IMG/VR virus record: IMGVR_UViG_2713896779_000017
From: a virus
Lineage: Duplodnaviria; Heunggongvirae; Uroviricota; Caudoviricetes
DNA: 12,749 nucleotides
Reading direction: 5' to 3' (one strand)
Of this stretch, positions 1 to 10,450 are shown piece by piece. Position numbers and translations under genes: made by a program. Below the pieces are notes generated by a model. It was not told the origin of the DNA. It searched no databases and saw only the letters and a list, made by a program, of their open reading frames with translations. The first letter of the stretch is position 1, and the number at the start of each line of letters is the position of its first letter.

Positions 1-2465
1 CCCGCCTGTCCGTTGGTGCCGTCGTTCTGAATCACCACGTGATTGTTCTGATTAAAATTAATGCCTTCCGTCCGCCGCATCTGCGCCGAACTTCCGGCAC
101 CGCCCACATAACCACCTTCCGCATAGCCCCGCATCAGGCGGTACAGGTTGCCGACGCCAATCCGGCTGGTTGCTTCCTTCGTGAAGACAAACTCCCCGCG
201 ATGAACAATTCCCGCAGGTTCATATTTACCCCCCGTCCCCGTAAATCCCCCGGTCGCGAAATGGAAGTTCGCCGCCGCAGCCTGAATGGCCGTCCCCGTG
301 GAGGCAGACGCACCACCACCGAAAGCACCGCCAATGGCGCTGCCGATACTCCCGACTATCCCCACCATCGCCTGCTTCAGAAAAATCTCTGTCAGCATGG
401 AGAGCACAGAACGGGTGAAACCACGCCAGTTCTGTTCGCTGCCGGTCAGCATCGCTGCCATATTCTGTGCAATACCGTCAAAGGTCTGCGTGGCCACGCT
501 TTTAACCTGCGAAAAACTNNNNNNNNNNNNNNNNNNNNNNNNNNNNNNNNNNNNNNNNNNNNNNNNNNCACGAAGCTGCTCCTCCGCAGACCAGGTGTTC
601 TTCAGTGCCGATGTGGCCTTCGCCAGCGCATCCGGATTATCACCGTACACGTCACGAAGGCGCTGCTCTTCCGACTCCCGCTGCGCCTGACGGTCGGTGA
701 GGCCCCGCGCCTGGGCACTGATTGCCGCCTGCTTCGCGCCCTGCTGCTGCTCAAACCGCGCAGCCTGCTGTGCCAGCTCATTCAGCCGTTTCTGGTGTTC
801 AACTTTGTCTCCCAGCTCAGCCAGCTGGCGTTTGTACTCCAGCGTCTCTTTCTCATGGGTCAGCAGGGATTTTTCCTGCTCAGATAACTGCCGTTTCGTG
901 GCTGCCTCTTTCAGGACCGCATACTGATTTTCCGCTTTCCATAAATCGCGACGCTGCTGGCTGATTTTCTCATTCGCACCGCTGTGTTTTTCCAGCGTCC
1001 GGAGCTCGGTTTCAAGCGCCAGCAGGGCAGCATGCGCCTGGTCTTCCTGACGCTCACCGGCTGACACTTTGACTCCTGACGACTTCGGCTTTTTCAGCGT
1101 CGATTCATAATCCTTTTTCGCCGCCGCCATCAGCGTGTTGTAATCCGCCTGCAGGATTTTCCCGTCTTTCAGGGCCTTATTCAGTTCTTCCTGACGGGCG
1201 GTATATTTCTCCAGCGGCGTCAGCAGACGCTCATACGCCTTCTGCGCCTCTCCGGTATACTTCAGCTGTGATGCGTCCCGTTCGGCCCGGTCCCTGGCGG
1301 CCAGTTCACCGGCTTTTTCCATATCCGACTGCAGCGTGGCCGCTGCCAGCCCCAGACGGGCATTTTCCCGGTCATTCCATGCACCCTGAAGGTTCGCACG
1401 AAAAGAGGCGGTTTTTCCCCGGCGCTGGCTCCGGCTCTGGTACCACTGCCATTTTTTATCCGCCTCATCAAATGCCTTCTGTGCACTGGCGAGCATATCC
1501 GCTGAGGACTCAGGACGACCGATATCCAGAATGGCATCCCACATCGATTTGAATGCCTTCCCGGTTTTATCCGCCCAGGTCTCCAGTGTCCCCATGTTTT
1601 CTTTCAGGCGACGGGTCTGCTCATCAAAGCCTTTCGTGGCGATATCGTTCGCCGCCTGTAAGGCCCCGGCCTCATCACCGGAACGCTGCAGCTGCGCAAC
1701 ATACGCAATCTGCTCTGCCGTCACGTTACGGAACTGGCGCGCCATCGCAATCAGCCCCGACGTAGGGTCGGTGGTCAGTTTTCCGAAAGCCTCTGCAACC
1801 TTGTCCACCTCCACACCGGATGCAGAAGCAAAACGCGCGACACTCTGGTTGATGGCATCAAACTGTTCACCACCACGCACACCGGCATTCACCAGGGCTG
1901 CCAGTGACTCACTCGCCTGGTTAAACGTCAGCCCTGCGGCCTGTCCGGCTCTGGAGAGCGTCAGCATGCGATCGGCAGTCAGTCCGGACTGATTACCGGA
2001 AAGAACCAGGGTTTTATTAAACGCTGAAAGCGTGGAATCCCCCTGGTACCAGGCGTACGCCAGCGCACCTGTCGCCACCGCCAGCGAGGTGACCCCGACC
2101 ATCGGCAGGGTGATCGCACCGGCAAGCCCCCTGAACATGGGGATCATCCCGCCGAAGGAGTCCTTCACCTGACCGCCCTGTTGCAGCAGGATCAGCCAGG
2201 GATTCTGACCACCGGCAAGCTGCGTGGCGATATCCGTAAACTGTGCGGGCAGGGTTCGCATGGCCGCTTTATACTGCCCGACGGAAATCCCGGCTTTTTG
2301 TGCAGCCAGCGCCTGGCGGCTCAGGCCCTGTTCAACAGCACTGGCGGTTTTTCTGGCGTCGGTATCCAGACCTGAAAAATGACGCCTTACCCGGCTCATC
2401 TGCTCATCGAAACGGACCGCATCCAGACTAAGGTCAATAACAAGATCACCAACCGGCTGGGACAT
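1..2465 (-). CDS. H: Tail tape measure protein (lambda gpH-like); 3' partial, C-terminus lies beyond window start; interrupted by the N gap at 519-568
   Basis: Minus-strand ATG at 2463-2465 preceded by GGAGG (plus 2474-2478). My own translation begins MSQPVGDLVIDLSLDAVRFDEQMSRVRRHFSG and continues with long stretches matching lambda gpH as I recall it (e.g. GISVGQYKAAMRTLPAQFTDIATQLAGGQNPWLILLQQGGQVKDSFGGMIPMFRGLAGAITLPMVG; LKYTGEAQKAYERLLTPLEKYTARQEELNKALKDGKILQADYNTLMAAAKKDY). Below the gap the same frame reads SQVKS..QTFDGIAQNMAAMLTGSEQNWRGFTRSVLSM..GKYEPAGIVHRGEFVFTKEATSRIGVGNLYRLMRGYA. Absent from the ORF track, probably because the frame runs off the window edge without a stop. Confidence 0.9.
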   Translation of the reverse strand, partial: MSQPVGDLVIDLSLDAVRFDEQMSRVRRHFSGLDTDARKTASAVEQGLSRQALAAQKAGISVGQYKAAMRTLPAQFTDIATQLAGGQNPWLILLQQGGQVKDSFGGMIPMFRGLAGAITLPMVGVTSLAVATGALAYAWYQGDSTLSAFNKTLVLSGNQSGLTADRMLTLSRAGQAAGLTFNQASESLAALVNAGVRGGEQFDAINQSVARFASASGVEVDKVAEAFGKLTTDPTSGLIAMARQFRNVTAEQIAYVAQLQRSGDEAGALQAANDIATKGFDEQTRRLKENMGTLETWADKTGKAFKSMWDAILDIGRPESSADMLASAQKAFDEADKKWQWYQSRSQRRGKTASFRANLQGAWNDRENARLGLAAATLQSDMEKAGELAARDRAERDASQLKYTGEAQKAYERLLTPLEKYTARQEELNKALKDGKILQADYNTLMAAAKKDYESTLKKPKSSGVKVSAGERQEDQAHAALLALETELRTLEKHSGANEKISQQRRDLWKAENQYAVLKEAATKRQLSEQEKSLLTHEKETLEYKRQLAELGDKVEHQKRLNELAQQAARFEQQQGAKQAAISAQARGLTDRQAQRESEEQRLRDVYGDNPDALAKATSALKNTWSAEEQLRXXXXXXXXXXXXXXXXXSFSQVKSVATQTFDGIAQNMAAMLTGSEQNWRGFTRSVLSMLTEIFLKQAMVGIVGSIGSAIGGAFGGGASASTGTAIQAAAANFHFATGGFTGTGGKYEPAGIVHRGEFVFTKEATSRIGVGNLYRLMRGYAEGGYVGGAGSSAQMRRTEGINFNQNNHVVIQNDGTNGQA
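519..568. other. Scaffold gap (50 N) inside the tape measure gene
   Basis: Run of 50 n characters. The H reading frame is the same on both sides (codon first bases congruent 2 mod 3), so the placeholder happens to preserve frame as 17 codons; true length is unknown. Confidence 0.95.
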
Positions 2466-3317
2466 ATCTCACACCTCCGGAAATCCCCGCTGAAGCCATC
2501 ATTAATGCGGCATCATCCACCATGACATCCGCCACATCCGCAGACGATAAAATATCGCGCCCTCCGTCCCCACCGAACCGGACGCCTCCGGCAAGTCCTG
2601 CCGCTTTCTGCATCAGCATTTTGTCCTCATCCGGCCTCTCCACCTGCTCTTCCTCATGCCGGGGGACAAGCAGACTGAAATCAGAGGGATGCATATCCGG
2701 ATCGCAAAAAAACAGGCTGAGTACAGCGTACGTCAGCCCGGAAAAATGCATATCCAGTTGGGTATCGTGAAAATAATGCGTGCGGTAAAAATGTCGCCAG
2801 TCGGCATATTCGGTGGATGTCATCCCGGCAAGCATGGCGCGCCAGTCAGGCCTCCCCATCTCACGCGCCAGTCTGAGGGCAAAATTCAGCTCGCCGTCGA
2901 AGACTTTCCCGCAGAAAAATCATCATCAGTCAGCGCGTTATTTTTCGCCACTTCGGTAATATCCGTATCCACATGAACAGGCCCGCTCATCCCGGACAGA
3001 CGCAACACCACATCTTCCGCCCGGGCAATGGCATCAGCAGGCCAGGTGGTCAGGACTTCCTGCTCAATCTGCATCACGGCCTCATTCATTGACGGTGACC
3101 CCGTTTTCTGCGGATGGTTATGCCACAGGGACATCGCCACCAGAAACGCGCCGGTTCTGACGAGATCTTCCACGCTTACCTGCAGGTTGCCGCTGGATTC
3201 TGCCTGTTCTGCACGCCGTTTCAGGAGGGCAAGATGCTCAATACGCTGCAGCGCAGACAATTCGGAAAGCGTGACAGACACACCGTTATATTCAAATTGT
3301 TCTGTTTTCAGAAACAT
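2446..3317 (-). CDS. T: Tail assembly chaperone G-T fusion made by -1 programmed frameshift (G frame 3317 down to the slip site at 2904-2910, then T frame down to the stop at 2446-2448)
   Basis: The -1 frame is open from the slippery heptamer through the track ORF 2446..2859; read across the junction it gives ..VFDGELNFALRLAREMGRPDWRAML... Position and the frameshift mechanism match lambda G-T. Confidence 0.75.
2474..2478 (-). promoter_or_regulatory. Shine-Dalgarno (GGAGG) for H
   Basis: Minus-strand sequence CCGGAGGTGTGAGAT immediately 5' of the H ATG. Confidence 0.6.
2886..3317 (-). CDS. G: Tail assembly chaperone (lambda gpG-like)
   Basis: Translation MFLKTEQFEYNGVSVTLSELSALQRIEHLALLKRRAEQAESSGN..GAFLVAMSLWHNHPQKTGSPSMNEAVMQIEQEVLTTWP matches lambda gpG. 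ATG at 3315-3317 with GGAGG 7 nt upstream (plus 3324-3328). The track ORF 2886..3398 starts at a duplicated copy of this ATG beyond the N gap and reads through the Ns; that extension is an artifact. Confidence 0.9.
   Translation of the reverse strand: MFLKTEQFEYNGVSVTLSELSALQRIEHLALLKRRAEQAESSGNLQVSVEDLVRTGAFLVAMSLWHNHPQKTGSPSMNEAVMQIEQEVLTTWPADAIARAEDVVLRLSGMSGPVHVDTDITEVAKNNALTDDDFSAGKSSTAS
2904..2910 (-). promoter_or_regulatory. -1 programmed ribosomal frameshift slippery heptamer G_GGA_AAG at the G/T junction
   Basis: Minus-strand codons in the G frame read GCG GGA AAG TCT TCG ACG GCG AGC TGA, i.e. X_XXY_YYZ = G_GGA_AAG six codons before the G stop, the same heptamer and position as in lambda. 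Confidence 0.85.
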
Positions 3318-3338
3318 GTATGACCTCCGTTTACCCTG
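3308..3338. repeat. 31-bp exact duplicate of 3389-3419 flanking the N gap (contig-end overlap artifact)
   Basis: tcagaaacatgtatgacctccgtttaccctg occurs immediately before and immediately after the 50-N run. Confidence 0.9.
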
Positions 3339-3388
3339 NNNNNNNNNNNNNNNNNNNNNNNNNNNNNNNNNNNNNNNNNNNNNNNNNN
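3339..3388. other. Scaffold gap (50 N), probably spurious because the flanking contig ends overlap
   Basis: 50 n characters bracketed by identical 31-mers; merging the overlap gives V stop, a 13-nt spacer containing GGAGG, then the G ATG, which is the expected lambda-like arrangement. Confidence 0.85.
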
Positions 3389-3411
3389 TCAGAAACATGT
3401 ATGACCTCCGT

Positions 3412-4164
3412 TTACCCTGCAGCGCCCGCTTCAGTAACGGTGACTTCAGCTACCGTGGCAAACTGACCATTACCGGAAATCACGGGGATACTCACTTTTC
3501 CAGCCTTAACCCCCGTCACAGTGATCACCATATCTTTCACAGCAATGGTTCCCGTTGACGGATCGGCGGAAACCGCTCTGAACGTCTTGTCGGTTGCACT
3601 TTCCGGCTCAAAAGAAACAGTCAGGGTGGTTGTTTTTCCTTTTTCCACGGTACCGGATGTCGGTGTCACCTTAATTGCAGTGGCCGGCGTAATTTCGCTG
3701 CGTTCTTCCGCCACGGAAGGTTTGCCCACGTTGGTCACTTTCACTGTTCGGGTGATCACTTCTTTCGCCGTCACTGCCTTACCGATACTGCTGATCCAGC
3801 CACGAAACACATCCACCGTGCCATTCGGAAAACGGATTTTATAGGCCCGCACATCCCCGCTTTCAAACCAGCCTATAAGCCCTTTCTGACCTTCTTCTCC
3901 CGGTTTCCAGGCCAGTGTAAAACTGGTATCACCTGCAGATTTCTGTCCCTGCCCGGTCGCGCTCCAGTCCGCGTCTTCATCATCCAGGTAGTTATCATCG
4001 TAGGATTCTGCCGTCATCTCGCCCGGCGTCAGATCCTTCACCTTAGCCAGTCGCTGCCAGTCATCATCTGACAACGGGTTTGCATAAGCATCACCCTTGC
4101 CGGTGTAAACCCACAGAGTGGTACCGGCACCTTTTACCGGCGCCAGGGGATTTGGTGTTGGCAT
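3412..4164 (-). CDS. V: Major tail tube protein (lambda gpV-like) with C-terminal Ig-like domain
   Basis: Track ORF of 250 aa; [127 protein letters not shown] matches lambda gpV as recalled. Confidence 0.95.
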
Positions 4165-5892: not shown

Positions 5893-6921
5893 TTATTTCA
5901 CCTGCACCACCACAAACTCATCCGGATCCGGCAGCACCATCAGCGGTGCGGACTGCGTCATGGTAAATTCACGGGCCGGATCGCCCACGGTCAGCCAGTG
6001 TTTCGGGTAACGGGAAGAAGCCACCACACCTTCGGACAACGCCTGCGCATCCTGAATGGCACCGTAACAACGGATCCCATCTGCAGCCGTATTTCCCAGG
6101 ACCAGCGTGCCCTCCGGCAGATAACGTTTTTCGGTACCGTCCTCTGCCACATAAGACGTTTTCGCCACCACAATGGCCAGATCGCCGTAATACCCTTTGA
6201 AAGACACCACCGCCCCCAGGTCTTTCACTGCCGTTTCGAGTTGTGAATTTGAGCCGCGACGGGTATCCAGTTTTTCTCGGAACAGCTTAAAACCATTCAG
6301 CAGACGCCAGACAGTACCGTCCATAATGGCAATATTCACAAGACCGCTGGCCTGATCGCAGTAGAGGTCAATATCATGCGTCGGATCAAACGTATCACGG
6401 TCCTGCTCAGACCATTTTTTACCGTCGGCCTGCTCAATGTTATTTCCTTCAGAGCGTCCAAAATCCACCTCGACAGTATCAAACTGATCCCCTTCCATGG
6501 TGTATTTGCCATACAGCACGGCATTCACCGCCTGCATTTCTTCCACCTGGACAATGGCATGCTCTTCCTGTTTGAGGTTATCGGTGATGATACGCAGACG
6601 ACGGTAGGCCGGGTCGTTCAGTTGAGCCGGATCTTCACCGGGAAGACGCTCAACCGCCTGCTGGTAATTAAATTCGTGTTTCGGCTTGACGTAGCCCGGA
6701 CGTAACACGCGGGTTTCACCACCGCGATGACGCAGCACTTTTCCTTCAACAACCGGGGAGACATAGGCCGCCACCGGCGTTTTTCCGGTAATTTTGTCCA
6801 GCATCACCTCTTCGGTATGGAAATTCACCGTACGGCGGAAAAACAGCTCCAGAAACAGCGCACGAAATTTCACTTTTTGTTCGGTATAACCGAGTAACTG
6901 GCGGGTCGTAAACAATCCCAT
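5893..6921 (-). CDS. E: Major capsid protein (lambda gpE-like)
   Basis: 342 aa; PGYVKPKHEFNYQQ, DPAYRRLRIITDNLKQEEHAIVQVEEMQAVNAVLYGKYTMEGDQFD, KLDTRRGSNSQLETAVKDLGAVVSFKGYYGDLAIVV and GDPAREFTMTQSAPLMVLPDPDEFVVVQ match lambda gpE. Confidence 0.96.
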   Translation of the reverse strand: MGLFTTRQLLGYTEQKVKFRALFLELFFRRTVNFHTEEVMLDKITGKTPVAAYVSPVVEGKVLRHRGGETRVLRPGYVKPKHEFNYQQAVERLPGEDPAQLNDPAYRRLRIITDNLKQEEHAIVQVEEMQAVNAVLYGKYTMEGDQFDTVEVDFGRSEGNNIEQADGKKWSEQDRDTFDPTHDIDLYCDQASGLVNIAIMDGTVWRLLNGFKLFREKLDTRRGSNSQLETAVKDLGAVVSFKGYYGDLAIVVAKTSYVAEDGTEKRYLPEGTLVLGNTAADGIRCYGAIQDAQALSEGVVASSRYPKHWLTVGDPAREFTMTQSAPLMVLPDPDEFVVVQVK

Positions 6922-6978: not shown

Positions 6979-7326
6979 TTACGGCAGCGCCGCGTGACTC
7001 AGGGCACTGCCGGCAAAGGCATTTGCCTTTTTGTGTTCATCCACACTGTCAGGCCAGCGGATTGCCTCCGTCGCAAAGGTCCCCGACTTGTAATACGTCA
7101 GTACCGTCTCTGTGCCTTCAAGCGGCAGTACCAGTATGCCAACCGCACTACCGGCTTTCTGTCCGTCCCAGACCACCAGTTTCCCGCTGGCTTCATCCAG
7201 CATCAGGGGCGTCAGTGCCGGTGTTGCCGAGGAAATCCCGCTGCTGCCTGTGGCGGTATGAGCCGGATCATTACCGGCAAAAATACGTACTTCCGCACGC
7301 TGTTCAGTGATGGTTTTCGTTACCAT
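6979..7326 (-). CDS. D: Head decoration protein (lambda gpD-like)
   Basis: 115 aa; NDPAHTATGSSGISSATPALTPLMLDEASGKLVVWDGQKAGSAVGILV..YYKSGTFATEAIRWPDSVDEHKKANAFAGSALS matches lambda gpD. Confidence 0.93.
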   Translation of the reverse strand: MVTKTITEQRAEVRIFAGNDPAHTATGSSGISSATPALTPLMLDEASGKLVVWDGQKAGSAVGILVLPLEGTETVLTYYKSGTFATEAIRWPDSVDEHKKANAFAGSALSHAALP

Positions 7327-7362: not shown

Positions 7363-8148
7363 TCATGGCATAGCCATGAGCATTTTCACGTCCGCATCAC
7401 CGTCTGCTGACGTCTGTGGCACGCCACCCTGTACCGCTGCCGGTGAATGGTTCGCCATGATGCGTTCAAACAGGGCGGTTGTGGATGCAGAGACCGGTTC
7501 TGCCTTACCTGATCCCGCAGCCAGCACAGCCCGGGCGCTCTCCACAGTCATTCCCGGGCAGGCAGCCAGCTGTTCAGCCTGCGCCTCAGCCCCTTTTGCC
7601 TCATCCAGTGCCATGATCTGATCACGGAGTGAGGGTCCGGCATCCGCCTGCGGTGAAGCAGCCAGGATCGGGCGGGCTTTTTCCACCGTCATCTCCGGCA
7701 TCGCCGCCAGCGTTGCCGCCAGTTGTTCACGACCGTTCGCTTCTTCACACGCCATAATGCGATCGGCTTCACTCTGCGTGGATGCCACCGGCTGCTGCGG
7801 TGCCGCCGCGGCCAGAATCGCCCGGGCCTGTTCAACGCTCATGCCCTGTTGTCCTGCCAGCATCGTGGCAAGCTGTTCACGTCCTTTCGCTTCCTGGCAT
7901 GTCAGGATCCCCATCACTCGCTGGTTCTCCTGCGCGGCGGCTTCCGTTGCAGTTAATTGCGGCATAGTGCCTCCTCTGACATTACTGTTCAGCGCCGTGG
8001 CCATCACACTGATGGCATCCGACGCATTGACTAATTCATCCGCCAGCCCGGCATCAATCCCGGACTGACCTTCAAAAACGGCGGCCTCTGTTCCCGTGAC
8101 GGCATCAACAGACAGACCGGTAAACATGGCCACTTTTTCGGCAAACAT
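7363..8148 (-). CDS. Nu3: Possible nested in-frame scaffolding protein (lambda Nu3-like) from an internal ATG of C
   Basis: Internal ATG at 8146-8148 (MFAEKVAMFTGLS) in the C frame, at about the position where lambda Nu3 initiates inside C as I recall it. No strong Shine-Dalgarno seen, so the exact start is uncertain. Confidence 0.4.
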   Translation of the reverse strand: MFAEKVAMFTGLSVDAVTGTEAAVFEGQSGIDAGLADELVNASDAISVMATALNSNVRGGTMPQLTATEAAAQENQRVMGILTCQEAKGREQLATMLAGQQGMSVEQARAILAAAAPQQPVASTQSEADRIMACEEANGREQLAATLAAMPEMTVEKARPILAASPQADAGPSLRDQIMALDEAKGAEAQAEQLAACPGMTVESARAVLAAGSGKAEPVSASTTALFERIMANHSPAAVQGGVPQTSADGDADVKMLMAMP

Positions 8149-8868
8149 CCGGCGCGCCGCATCAATGCGCTGCTGCATGTCCTGGCGAACCTCTGCCGGT
8201 AAGGCTTCAAACTGATTGCCATCCACCTTGTGCGCCCCTGAGTAAATCAGCGTGATATCCACACCGGCCTGCGCCAGATGACCGGCATAGCTGACATGGC
8301 TCATCATCACGCCAATGGAGCCGATACGGGATGTCTGGGTAACCAGCCGTCGGGAGCAGGCCGACGCCAGCAGCATGGCTGCAGAACAGGCCGTGTCATT
8401 GCACAGTGCCCAGACCGGCTTCTGCTGACGGAGGCGGTAAATCATGTCAGCGCAGTCAAACGCGCCGGCGGCCTGCCCGCCCGGACTGTCAATGTCCAGC
8501 AGTACGCCCCGCACCTGGCTATCCGCCATTGCCTGCTGAAGACAGGCGACAATGCCGTCATAGCCTGTCATTCCGGAAAATGACCGCATACCCCCCAGCC
8601 GGTGCACCAGCGTGCCGGTCACCGGCAGTACAGCAATACCGTTCACCACCCGGTAAACACGGGCCGGTCGTTTACCTCCGGCCATGTACTCGTCCGTTTC
8701 AGCCAGCATTCCGGGAGCATCAAGCTGTACCTGCTGCTGTGGTACCGAAAGACTTGCTGCCCCCATCTCGCGCCCGAGCGCGCAAAAGAAAACCCGCGCA
8801 TAGGCGGGCTCCAGAAGCAGCGGTTCATTGAATGCTGCGGCAATAATGTGTGAAAGATTACGTCTCAC
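7363..8868 (-). CDS. C: Head maturation protease / scaffold (lambda gpC-like, ClpP/S49-type N-terminal domain) with repeat-expanded C-terminal region
   Basis: 501 aa; AFNEPLLLEPAYARVFFCAL, NGIAVLPVTGTLV, SGMTGYDGIVACLQQA, PGGQAAGAFDCADMIYRLRQQKPVWAL, SRRLVTQTSRIGSIGVMMSHVSY, GVDITLIYSGAHKVDGN and EAAVFEGQSGIDAGLADELVNASDAI match lambda gpC. Start codon is GTG (plus 8866-8868 = cac) and overlaps the B stop by 11 nt. Confidence 0.9.
   Translation of the reverse strand: MRRNLSHIIAAAFNEPLLLEPAYARVFFCALGREMGAASLSVPQQQVQLDAPGMLAETDEYMAGGKRPARVYRVVNGIAVLPVTGTLVHRLGGMRSFSGMTGYDGIVACLQQAMADSQVRGVLLDIDSPGGQAAGAFDCADMIYRLRQQKPVWALCNDTACSAAMLLASACSRRLVTQTSRIGSIGVMMSHVSYAGHLAQAGVDITLIYSGAHKVDGNQFEALPAEVRQDMQQRIDAARRMFAEKVAMFTGLSVDAVTGTEAAVFEGQSGIDAGLADELVNASDAISVMATALNSNVRGGTMPQLTATEAAAQENQRVMGILTCQEAKGREQLATMLAGQQGMSVEQARAILAAAAPQQPVASTQSEADRIMACEEANGREQLAATLAAMPEMTVEKARPILAASPQADAGPSLRDQIMALDEAKGAEAQAEQLAACPGMTVESARAVLAAGSGKAEPVSASTTALFERIMANHSPAAVQGGVPQTSADGDADVKMLMAMP
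7465..7920 (-). repeat. Three imperfect in-frame tandem repeats (141-159 bp, 47-53 aa) inside the C/Nu3 C-terminal coding region
   Basis: Protein units starting R317 (RVMGILTCQEAKGREQLATMLAGQQGMSVEQARAILAAAAPQ), R370 (RIMACEEANGREQLAATLAAMPEMTVEKARPILAASPQ) and Q417 (QIMALDEAKGAEAQAEQLAACPGMTVESARAVLAAGSG), followed by a truncated fourth copy (ERIMANHSP). The DNA repeats are visible on the plus strand, e.g. ...ctgttcacgaccgttcgcttc... and ...ctgttcacgtcctttcgcttc... Confidence 0.85.
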
Positions 8869-10450
8869 GGGGTGTTGTCTCCTCTTCCGGCCTGCGACTC
8901 TCCGCTATCTGCTGCTGATACGCCTGCGCTATCCACACCGGACGTGAGAGTCCGGCTTTTTGCCGCTCTGCAGATTCCCTGACCTGCTGGCGGAAAATGT
9001 CCTGATAATCCTCGCCCATCAGCGCCAGCTCTTTCTCATACGTGCTCAGTCCGGCCTCAATGCGCATCACCGATTCCTGAACCTCCTTGAGCCCGTCAAT
9101 GGCCATTCTTCCGGCACCAATCCACTCTGCCCGTGACCAGGCTGATCGCGCCTGATAAAAATCAAAACGCGCCCGTGGCGGACGGATAATCCCCCGAAGA
9201 AGTGCCTCTTCCAGCCAGCAGGAAAACATCTGCGTGGCCAGCCGGGCCGCAATAAATTTTCGCCGCCCCATAAAATAGCGCCACGACTCATTGGCAGAGG
9301 CCCTGGCACTTGAATAACTGACCTTCGAGTAATCACGGGACAACTGTTCGTAGGAAACGCCAAGACCGGCGGCGATATACCGCAGCAGCGCCTGTTCAAG
9401 CGCCGAAAATCCATTGTCTGAATCCTGCGCAGTCTGTAGTTTCAGATCATCCCCGGGGAAAAGGTGCGGAATTTTGACACCACCCAGCGTCACGTTATTC
9501 GTGTCATACCAGCTGGAGAACTTCTCCAGAATATTAATAAGCGGATTATCCTTCTGCCCCTGCGGCGCACCGGCGATATATTCAAAGGCCTTTTCGGTAT
9601 CAAGGTCACTTTCAATCGTCGCTGCATACATGGCTTTCACAATGGCCGACTGAAGCTGTGTTGCCTGCAGGGAATCGAGCATCTTCAGCCGTTCCATGAC
9701 GCTGTAAAACTGGTTGGCCCCACGGGTCTGCCCGTCCTCCACCGGCTCGAAAATATGCAGCATGGCCGGACGCCCGGTGGGAAGTTCACGCGGGATCCGT
9801 TCCCATCGTCCACTCCCGGAGCGAGGAAAATCATCCTCACAGATATGGTACGCAACGGCACGGCCATATCGATCGACCTCCACCCCGGCCCGCAGAAAAC
9901 GGTTCCCCATACCGTGTCCTGGCGTGTCCACCCGTTTCGGACTCACGGCTTTAAAACGCGTACGGAATAACTGCGTGGTTTCCGTATCCCAGACCGGCTG
10001 CACAAAGATTTCGCCGTTAAACGCATGAACGCCCACACCTTCACGGATAAATTCCGTGAACGTGCGTTTTCCTTCCACGTCGATCTCGCCAGACATCCCT
10101 TCGGCGTATTCCGACCAGGCCGCCTCCACCTCATCGACAAAGCTTTTTGCTGCGGTCTCCCGCATCCCCAGCCAGCGCCAGTTCGGACGGTAGCTGATAA
10201 GAAACATATGCCCGACAATGTGATCCTTATGCAGTGCCACCGCATTGGCCGCTATTCCGTTATTGCGCACCAGATCATCTGCCCGGGCATTCCCCAGACG
10301 CAACGCGGGCAGCAGGGCCGCATCGGCACTCTGCGCCGGTGGCAACCACTCCGCCATTTGCCCGCCAAATCCTGCACCGCCCCCGTTGTAGCTGAGACTC
10401 TCACGAAGCGGAACGCCGTTCACATCAATCAGGACAGGCGTTCGTTTCAT
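8858..10450 (-). CDS. B: Portal protein (lambda gpB-like)
   Basis: 530 aa track ORF, portal-sized and located between W and C as in lambda. Start ATG overlaps the W stop (ATGA). Confidence 0.93.
   Translation of the reverse strand: MKRTPVLIDVNGVPLRESLSYNGGGAGFGGQMAEWLPPAQSADAALLPALRLGNARADDLVRNNGIAANAVALHKDHIVGHMFLISYRPNWRWLGMRETAAKSFVDEVEAAWSEYAEGMSGEIDVEGKRTFTEFIREGVGVHAFNGEIFVQPVWDTETTQLFRTRFKAVSPKRVDTPGHGMGNRFLRAGVEVDRYGRAVAYHICEDDFPRSGSGRWERIPRELPTGRPAMLHIFEPVEDGQTRGANQFYSVMERLKMLDSLQATQLQSAIVKAMYAATIESDLDTEKAFEYIAGAPQGQKDNPLINILEKFSSWYDTNNVTLGGVKIPHLFPGDDLKLQTAQDSDNGFSALEQALLRYIAAGLGVSYEQLSRDYSKVSYSSARASANESWRYFMGRRKFIAARLATQMFSCWLEEALLRGIIRPPRARFDFYQARSAWSRAEWIGAGRMAIDGLKEVQESVMRIEAGLSTYEKELALMGEDYQDIFRQQVRESAERQKAGLSRPVWIAQAYQQQIAESRRPEEETTPRET

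Follow-up and report, generated by a model that had tools for sequence, protein, structure and literature searches.

The stretch analyzed here (12,749 nucleotides (nt), hereafter the window) is the tailed-phage record IMGVR_UViG_2713896779_000017. It comprises a module for head and tail morphogenesis from a lambdoid prophage, in which every gene is located on the minus strand. Here we describe a gene of this module that encodes a head maturation protease-scaffold fusion of the phage 21 gp5 and lambda gpC type, and three tandem copies of a sequence module in the C-terminal part of its product. According to the list of open reading frames (ORFs) and their translations, the gene occupies 7363-8868 (minus strand), starts with GTG, stops at 7363-7365 and encodes 501 amino acids (aa). 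Outside of two runs of Ns the window is 100% identical to prophages of complete genomes of Escherichia coli O121:H19 and related Shiga toxin-producing strains, and identical complete genomes annotate the 501-aa protein as "S49 family peptidase" (WP_001254023.1).

Searches with the translated protein confirmed a protease. The Pfam family Peptidase_S49 (PF01343) was found at aa 146-293 (7990-8433, minus strand) with an E value of 7e-35 and 120.7 bits against a cut-off of 24.9, and this SppA-like serine protease domain also matches SppA in the PDB by sequence (3rst/4kwb, E 1e-16). The complete protein matches PHROG 53, "head maturation protease", from end to end (E 2e-227). Since these matches coincide with a position between the portal gene and the genes for the decoration and capsid proteins, the protein was identified as the analogue of lambda gpC/Nu3.

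The C-terminal third of the protein contains three units, termed T1, T2 and T3, each followed by a linker and all encoded on the minus strand. T1 with its linker covers aa 317-369 (7762-7920, core 7795-7920; match to the hidden Markov model (HMM) of the unit at aa 313-358, E 5e-27), T2 covers aa 370-416 (7621-7761, core 7648-7761; HMM match aa 366-407, E 5e-28) and T3 covers aa 417-468 (7465-7620, core 7504-7620; HMM match aa 413-455, E 2e-27). A sequence-only reading of the window had proposed three divergent in-frame copies at 7465-7920, and this interval is exactly the one spanned by T1 to T3. Local alignment with BLOSUM62 yielded scores of 101 (T1/T2), 87 (T1/T3) and 91 (T2/T3), compared to approximately 26 ± 5 for shuffled partners (z 11-15), and not one of 1000 shuffles reached the scores of the real pairs. 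The units have 21-23 identical residues over 35-44 aligned positions in each pair, and 16 columns are invariant across all three. Their consensus of approximately 40 residues reads R-I-M-x-x-x-E-A-K-G-R-E-x-L-A-x-x-L-A-x-x-P-G-M-T-V-E-x-A-R-x-I-L-A-A-x-P. No model for this module was found in Pfam or NCBIfam. The helix-hairpin-helix family PF00633 gave a single weak match to T3 (aa 427-450, 13.1 bits against a cut-off of 24, E 0.093), which is below threshold, and, as read from the sequence, the G-h-G hairpin lacks its second glycine.

The repeat is detectable at the protein level only. Tandem Repeats Finder reported nothing in the repeat region or in the whole window, and a DNA repeat finder detected only fragments of 12-15 nt at a spacing of about 150 nt, the repeat being too diverged as DNA. 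Nucleotide identity over aligned codons is 52-65% between units, and the same codon is used at only 8-11 of the 19-25 identical residues of each unit pair. These data bear on the possibility that the units are a DNA- or RNA-level element, either "boxes" or an RNA structure, that lies inside the gene by chance. Such an element is suggested by the GenBank vocabulary, which terms the units "boxes" under the feature type repeat_region, and by a later phage 21 record (2022) that marks two matches to the CII-type pattern TTGYN6TTGY in the scaffold gene. It is effectively refuted by the codon usage: identical residues are mostly encoded by different codons, no tandem repeat is found in the DNA, and the conserved positions match the reading frame and the predicted helices. 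Matches to TTGYNNNNNNTTGY are present in the window at 7713-7726 and 7947-7960 on the plus strand and correspond to the sites annotated as CII-binding in the 2022 record. With two matches found and 2.33 expected in the window the pattern occurs at chance level, and a reading of the region as CII-binding sites was rejected.

The triplication is already known: the annotation of phage 21 has included it since the early 1990s. In the GenBank feature table of the phage 21 head operon (M81255.1) gene 6 contains three features of the type repeat_region, "Tri1 box", "Tri box" and "Tri3 box", which carry the remark "function unknown; putative". Mapped onto the window these boxes lie at 7795-7898 (Tri1), 7648-7758 (Tri) and 7504-7617 (Tri3) and are the cores of T1, T2 and T3, respectively. 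It is nearly certain that the feature described here represents the Tri boxes of the phage 21-type gp5/gp6 proteins, a derived triplication of the Nu3 core. A literature search on the Tri box, phage 21 Nu3 repeats, gpNu3 and tandem repeats in scaffold proteins did not find a paper that discusses the repeats within the collection of papers searched.

To determine how widespread the region is, complete E. coli genomes were searched with the 638-bp segment 7363-8000. The segment is present in 1869 of 5426 genomes, about a third, and in full length in 1863 of them. In addition, 21 records of a phage collection cover at least 80% of the 501-aa protein. The triplication is thus real and ordinary, being very common in E. 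coli prophages. An expansion of the copies during assembly has to be considered here, as the window is a scaffolded draft with two gaps of 50 Ns, one of them flanked by a duplicated 31-mer. We reject this explanation. The units are only 52-65% identical as DNA, and therefore an assembler could not collapse or expand them; the whole window is 100% identical to several complete genomes; and the gaps are located more than 4 kb away from the repeat region. Three units are likewise found in independently sequenced phages, including that of M81255.1, showing that the copy number is genuine. For annotation this means that the extra length of the "S49 family peptidase" is real and does not reflect an assembly error.

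The two N runs of this draft assembly cover 519-568 and 3339-3388. Immediately after the second run, 3389-3419 duplicates exactly the 31 bp that precede it, TCAGAAACATGTATGACCTCCGTTTACCCTG, which looks as if contigs with overlapping ends had been joined across a scaffold gap. The ORF of the tail chaperone G (2886-3398, 170 aa) is inflated by read-through of these Ns; it has 143 aa in an identical complete genome.

The structure of the units was predicted with AlphaFold2. With an alignment of 20 sequences the model contains three short helices per unit at a predicted local distance difference test score (pLDDT) of approximately 77-80: helix A around R-I-M, helix B with E-x-L-A-x-x-L-A, and, after the P-G-M-T loop, helix C with V-E-x-A-R-x-I-L-A-A. 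The linkers are of low confidence, and the predicted template modelling score (pTM) of 0.27 corresponds to no fixed packing between the units. A model computed from the single sequence is similar. The units are predicted to be small, independent three-helix modules that are arranged on flexible linkers like beads on a string.

Downstream of T3 the protein ends in a C-terminal tail (aa 469-501, RIMANHS...DVKMLMAMP; 7366-7464, minus strand), in which the sequence-only reading saw a truncated fourth copy. This copy did not withstand analysis. In shuffled pairwise scoring the tail reached a z value below 1 against each of T1, T2 and T3, and the unit HMM provided no evidence of a fourth copy in any of four tails (window, phage 21, lambda and Gifsy-1). 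The window tail scores approximately 0 bits even with a search space of one sequence, and the pentapeptide ERIMA is the sole match. Phage 21 has EHFMA at the place of ERIMA, and it is this substitution, ERIMANHS in the window against EHFMANHS in phage 21, that produced the apparent fourth "RIM". The tail aligns instead with the C-terminal tail of lambda, as the second high-scoring segment pair (HSP) of the window-lambda alignment. The alignments identify it as a C-terminal tail found throughout the family, not a demonstrable remnant of a repeat. Motifs that are kept in relatives are F/L-[DE]-x-[FIL]-M and a terminal LLMxMP-like end (LLMSMP or LLNTPV-like). A helix of the type hydrophobic-x-x-x-M, about 10 residues past the last unit, is kept in distant relatives. 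The tail could be a separate binding element. An alternative phase of the repeat, consisting of helix B, helix C and then the following "D-R-I-M" helix, was considered as well; it would assign the tail helix to T3 and leave lambda with exactly one unit. The spacing and the first HSP of the window-lambda alignment would be compatible with this phase, although the segment is very short.

The repeat array is located in a part of the gene that is predicted to be used twice. An in-frame nested ORF of 200 aa, the analogue of phage 21 gene 6 and lambda Nu3, starts at Met302 of the long protein (7363-7965, minus strand). Its ATG lies at 7965-7963, where M81255.1 and OL657228.1 also place the start of gene 6, and it aligns with the start region of lambda Nu3, GGRMTKE. 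A putative ribosome-binding site, GAGGAGG, was read from the sequence 4 nt upstream of this ATG (7970-7976, minus strand) and corresponds to the "putative" ribosome-binding site of phage 21 gene 6. The array is common to the 501-aa protease and the predicted 200-aa scaffold protein, as the sequence-only reading had claimed. The profile of PHROG 8399, "head scaffolding protein", which contains a single copy, matches the nested protein in three separate stretches (E 8.5e-36). By homology to lambda Nu3 and phage 21 gp6, the nested protein would act as a scaffold that is removed by the protease before packaging.

To place the unit within its family, we built a profile from T1, T2 and T3 and compared it with 1.84 billion representative proteins at a threshold of E <= 1e-3. 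It matched 447 representative clusters, and almost all matches consist of a single stretch located 40-180 residues from the C-terminus of proteins of 400-550 aa. The best 150 matches include 55 full-length representatives; 54 of these have a single unit, and the remaining one has three. The consensus of the unit across the family is roughly ER.RI..IL.CEEAKGRE.LA..LA..PGMTVE.AK.ILAAAP. S49 prohead protease/scaffold proteins carry a Nu3-type scaffold domain near their C-terminus, and these matches identify the unit as the conserved core of that domain. Three of the lambda-type gpC representatives differ in length: P0126 (535 aa) and P0127 (582 aa) have unrelated sequence in place of the normal tail, and P0149 (844 aa) has an N-terminal extension. 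All three are probably frameshift or fusion gene calls.

A tree of the units was used to compare the individual copies. Unit 1 of all multi-copy proteins groups with the sole unit of lambda and has a three-residue insertion, "MGI", in common with it, which identifies T1, as judged from the tree, as the orthologue of the single lambda unit. T2 groups with the second and T3 with the third unit of Gifsy-1 (79% and 60% identity, respectively), and both likewise group with the units of matching position in a Salmonella homologue. Due to this clustering by position, the triplication is judged to be older than the split between the E. coli and Salmonella phages, with each copy retained. As a single copy is the rule in the wider family, the triplication is most simply explained as a gain. 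We propose that in an ancestor of the phage 21/Gifsy-1 lineage two copies were added by tandem duplication in frame, downstream of the original unit and ahead of the C-terminal tail, that all three copies were later maintained by selection on the protein, and that unequal recombination subsequently gave rise to derivatives with four and with two copies.

Selection on the copies was estimated as the ratio of nonsynonymous to synonymous polymorphism (pN/pS) from 39 distinct alleles of viral contigs and genomes. The ratio is 0.13 for T1, 0.31 for T2, 0.20 for T3 and 0.88 for the first linker, values that rest on few substitutions among close alleles. They indicate that the three copies are under purifying selection. 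The same numbers are relevant for a reading in which the S49 protease recognizes or cleaves the units, which would serve as repeated degradation signals for the fast removal of both scaffold and protease. For lambda, gpC is named as the presumed protease that digests Nu3 ahead of packaging (PMC3224144, Table 2), and the linkers between the units are predicted to be flexible and hence accessible. Yet the conserved, structured parts are helices and not linkers, and linker 1 is the least constrained part, which is unexpected for a conserved cleavage site. We consider this reading improbable.

The number of units differs between natural members of the family. Of the loci analyzed, four came from a scan of species-representative genomes and 80 near-identical ones from a scan of viral contigs; they informed about the diversity of alleles and not about the diversity of copy number. 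A four-copy form was found in an E. coli prophage (P0027 / L007; L007:1-1043, contig of GCA_032727965.1), in which units 2-4 are 80-85% identical to one another. This identity points to a recent expansion. Places covering at least 80% of the four-copy query are present in approximately 105 of the 5426 complete E. coli genomes, for example in NZ_CP041435.1 at 2573566-2574269, and its best matches in the phage collection are three-copy phages with only about 61% identity. The four-copy variant belongs to the same family and has the same flanking genes as the window but carries four units instead of three. The capsid protein encoded next to it is 84% identical to that of the window, and therefore the copy number shifts beside closely related capsid proteins. 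Two-copy forms are represented by a precise fusion of T1 and T2 (P0020) and by P0016 and P0021. Furthermore, in a 482-aa variant (WP_001253887.1; L004:1201-2649, NZ_AP022221.1) the second half of T2 is lost through an in-frame deletion of 19 aa. Sequence comparison of these variants indicates that the copy number is still labile, with natural forms ranging from one to four units. A metagenomic protein of 198 aa (P0130 / L093), encoded on a short contig, has two N-terminal units without the protease domain. Each of them has the other as its closest relative, suggesting that a distant lineage duplicated the unit independently.

The sequence-only reading had speculated that the number of repeats might alter scaffold-capsid interactions or proteolytic processing. 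The function that we propose for the array builds on the behavior of lambda Nu3, for which two-hybrid tests are reported to show self-association as well as interactions with gpC and the capsid protein gpE (PMC3224144). Each unit would make the contact that the single unit of lambda makes inside the procapsid, either with the major capsid protein, with other scaffold chains or with both. Three such modules would yield a multivalent scaffold, and through the same array the protease would be brought into the shell as well, ahead of its degradation of the scaffold. We regard the complete explanation, comprising the identity with the Tri boxes, the history of the triplication and the multivalent binding inside the procapsid, as fairly probable. 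The multivalent binding taken by itself is put forward tentatively, at slightly less than an even chance.

Several observations weigh against this proposal. The confidence of the AlphaFold2 models is only moderate, and the pN/pS values have the narrow basis given above. A search of the PDB with the unit profile found no sequence relative of the unit (none below E 0.28). Foldseek searches of the PDB with both models, and of BFVD with the alignment-based model, returned nothing significant, the only matches being S49 prohead proteases at E > 0.1. The units are internal and not at the extreme C-terminus, where the capsid-binding elements of other scaffold proteins usually sit, and as read from the sequence they are near neutral or slightly acidic, in contrast to the basic coat-binding hairpin of P22. 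It could instead be the separately conserved tail (F-[DE]-x-F-M ... LLMSMP) that actually binds the capsid or the portal.

Part of these observations would also fit a different division of labor, in which the units are modules for oligomerization (Nu3-Nu3 and Nu3-C) or length modules that set the size or volume of the core, and the tail contacts the capsid or the portal. This would agree with the self-association of lambda Nu3 and its reported interaction with gpC (PMC3224144), with the conservation of separate motifs in the tail across relatives, with the position of the units internal to the tail, and with the tolerance of one to four copies next to capsid proteins that are closely related (those encoded beside the three-copy and the four-copy form are 84% identical). 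A pure spacer, however, would not hold 16 invariant residues in three paralogous copies, nor would it hold the EAKGRE and PGMTVE.A[RK] motifs throughout the family. We judge this alternative to be unlikely, while still giving it appreciable weight.

Returning to multivalent binding, the number of modules per chain might represent a valency that is tunable in evolution and sets how many capsid subunits or scaffold partners are engaged; we regard this extension as possible and rather doubtful. If it is true, the kinetics or fidelity of procapsid assembly or the loading of the protease would change with copy number, and the natural copy-number variants would be a ready series for dissecting the contact between scaffold and shell in the lambda family. 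The module is of interest for the structural biology of how the lambda-family scaffold Nu3 and its protease fusion contact the capsid interior. A unit that is the scaffold core of the whole family, together with forms of one, two, three and four copies coexisting beside closely related capsids, could make the module experimentally tractable. The additions to the known Tri boxes are modest: what the unit is across the family, how its three copies are related by orthology and held under constraint, and the series from one to four copies. Current understanding is not changed.

The genes surrounding the protease/scaffold gene are all encoded on the minus strand as well. The portal protein gene upstream (8858-10450; ORF list and annotation of the identical complete-genome locus) overlaps the start of the protease gene. 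Downstream are the gene for the head decoration protein, the analogue of shp and gpD (6979-7326; ORF list, phage 21 record and identical-locus annotation), and the gene for the major capsid protein, the analogue of gp7 and gpE and the presumed binding partner of the scaffold (5893-6921; ORF list and identical-locus annotation). The major capsid protein has 62% identity to lambda gpE. Based on the annotation of the identical complete-genome locus, the order is terminase, head completion gene, portal, protease/scaffold, decoration protein and major capsid protein, in agreement with the phage 21 record. In a near-identical complete genome (L005; NZ_CP028110.1, O121 RM8352) the tape-measure gene (607-3185) and the head decoration gene (7618-7964) are annotated as frameshifted pseudogenes, unlike the window, in which the decoration ORF is intact.

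We compared the array with scaffold proteins of other phages. In P22 a helix-turn-helix at the C-terminus of the scaffold contacts the coat protein inside the procapsid (PMC11565965). Both this coat-binding domain and the unit are small helical scaffold modules, and the likeness is a functional analogy only. The P22 module is single, terminal and basic, whereas the module of the window is near neutral and occurs as internal repeats. Searches detected neither sequence nor fold similarity to the solved C-terminal domain of the P22 scaffold (no PDB match of the unit profile below E 0.28; no Foldseek match in the PDB at E <= 0.001 with either model).

Lambda gpC/gpNu3 has the same general arrangement of an S49 protease, an in-frame nested scaffold, a unit and a homologous tail. 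Identity to the window is 54% through the protease domain and T1, and the lambda unit is 58% identical to T1. The lambda gpC sequence, taken from the lambda imm21 record, is 439 aa long and carries one unit, with a single HMM match at aa 357-400, and not the three of the window. The sequence-only reading had given lambda one full copy and a partial one. The full copy is correct, the sequence it quoted being present as the one unit, and the partial copy is not supported by the unit HMM in the tail. The extra length of the window protein had been attributed mostly to additional copies, and this holds: two more units add approximately 100 aa, the leader before the first unit is about 35 residues longer in lambda, and the net difference between 501 and 439 aa is +62 aa. 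The Nu3 scaffold of lambda is approximately 132 aa long, compared to 200 aa for the nested scaffold of the window.

The gpC homologue STM2605 of Gifsy-1 (Salmonella) is closer in architecture, with three units in the same order, identities of 76%, 79% and 60% by position and 63.5% identity overall. It differs from the window protein in being more diverged, in a slightly different tail and in shorter linkers. The closest named system is gp5/gp6 of phage 21 (M81255.1 / OL657228.1). Differences to the window are restricted to a few substitutions, for example V in phage 21 for A374 of the window in T2, and EHFMANHS for ERIMANHS in the tail. Identity is 97.8% over all 501 residues, and the nested start, the ribosome-binding site, the positions of the three units and the gene order portal-protease/scaffold-shp-major capsid are all alike.

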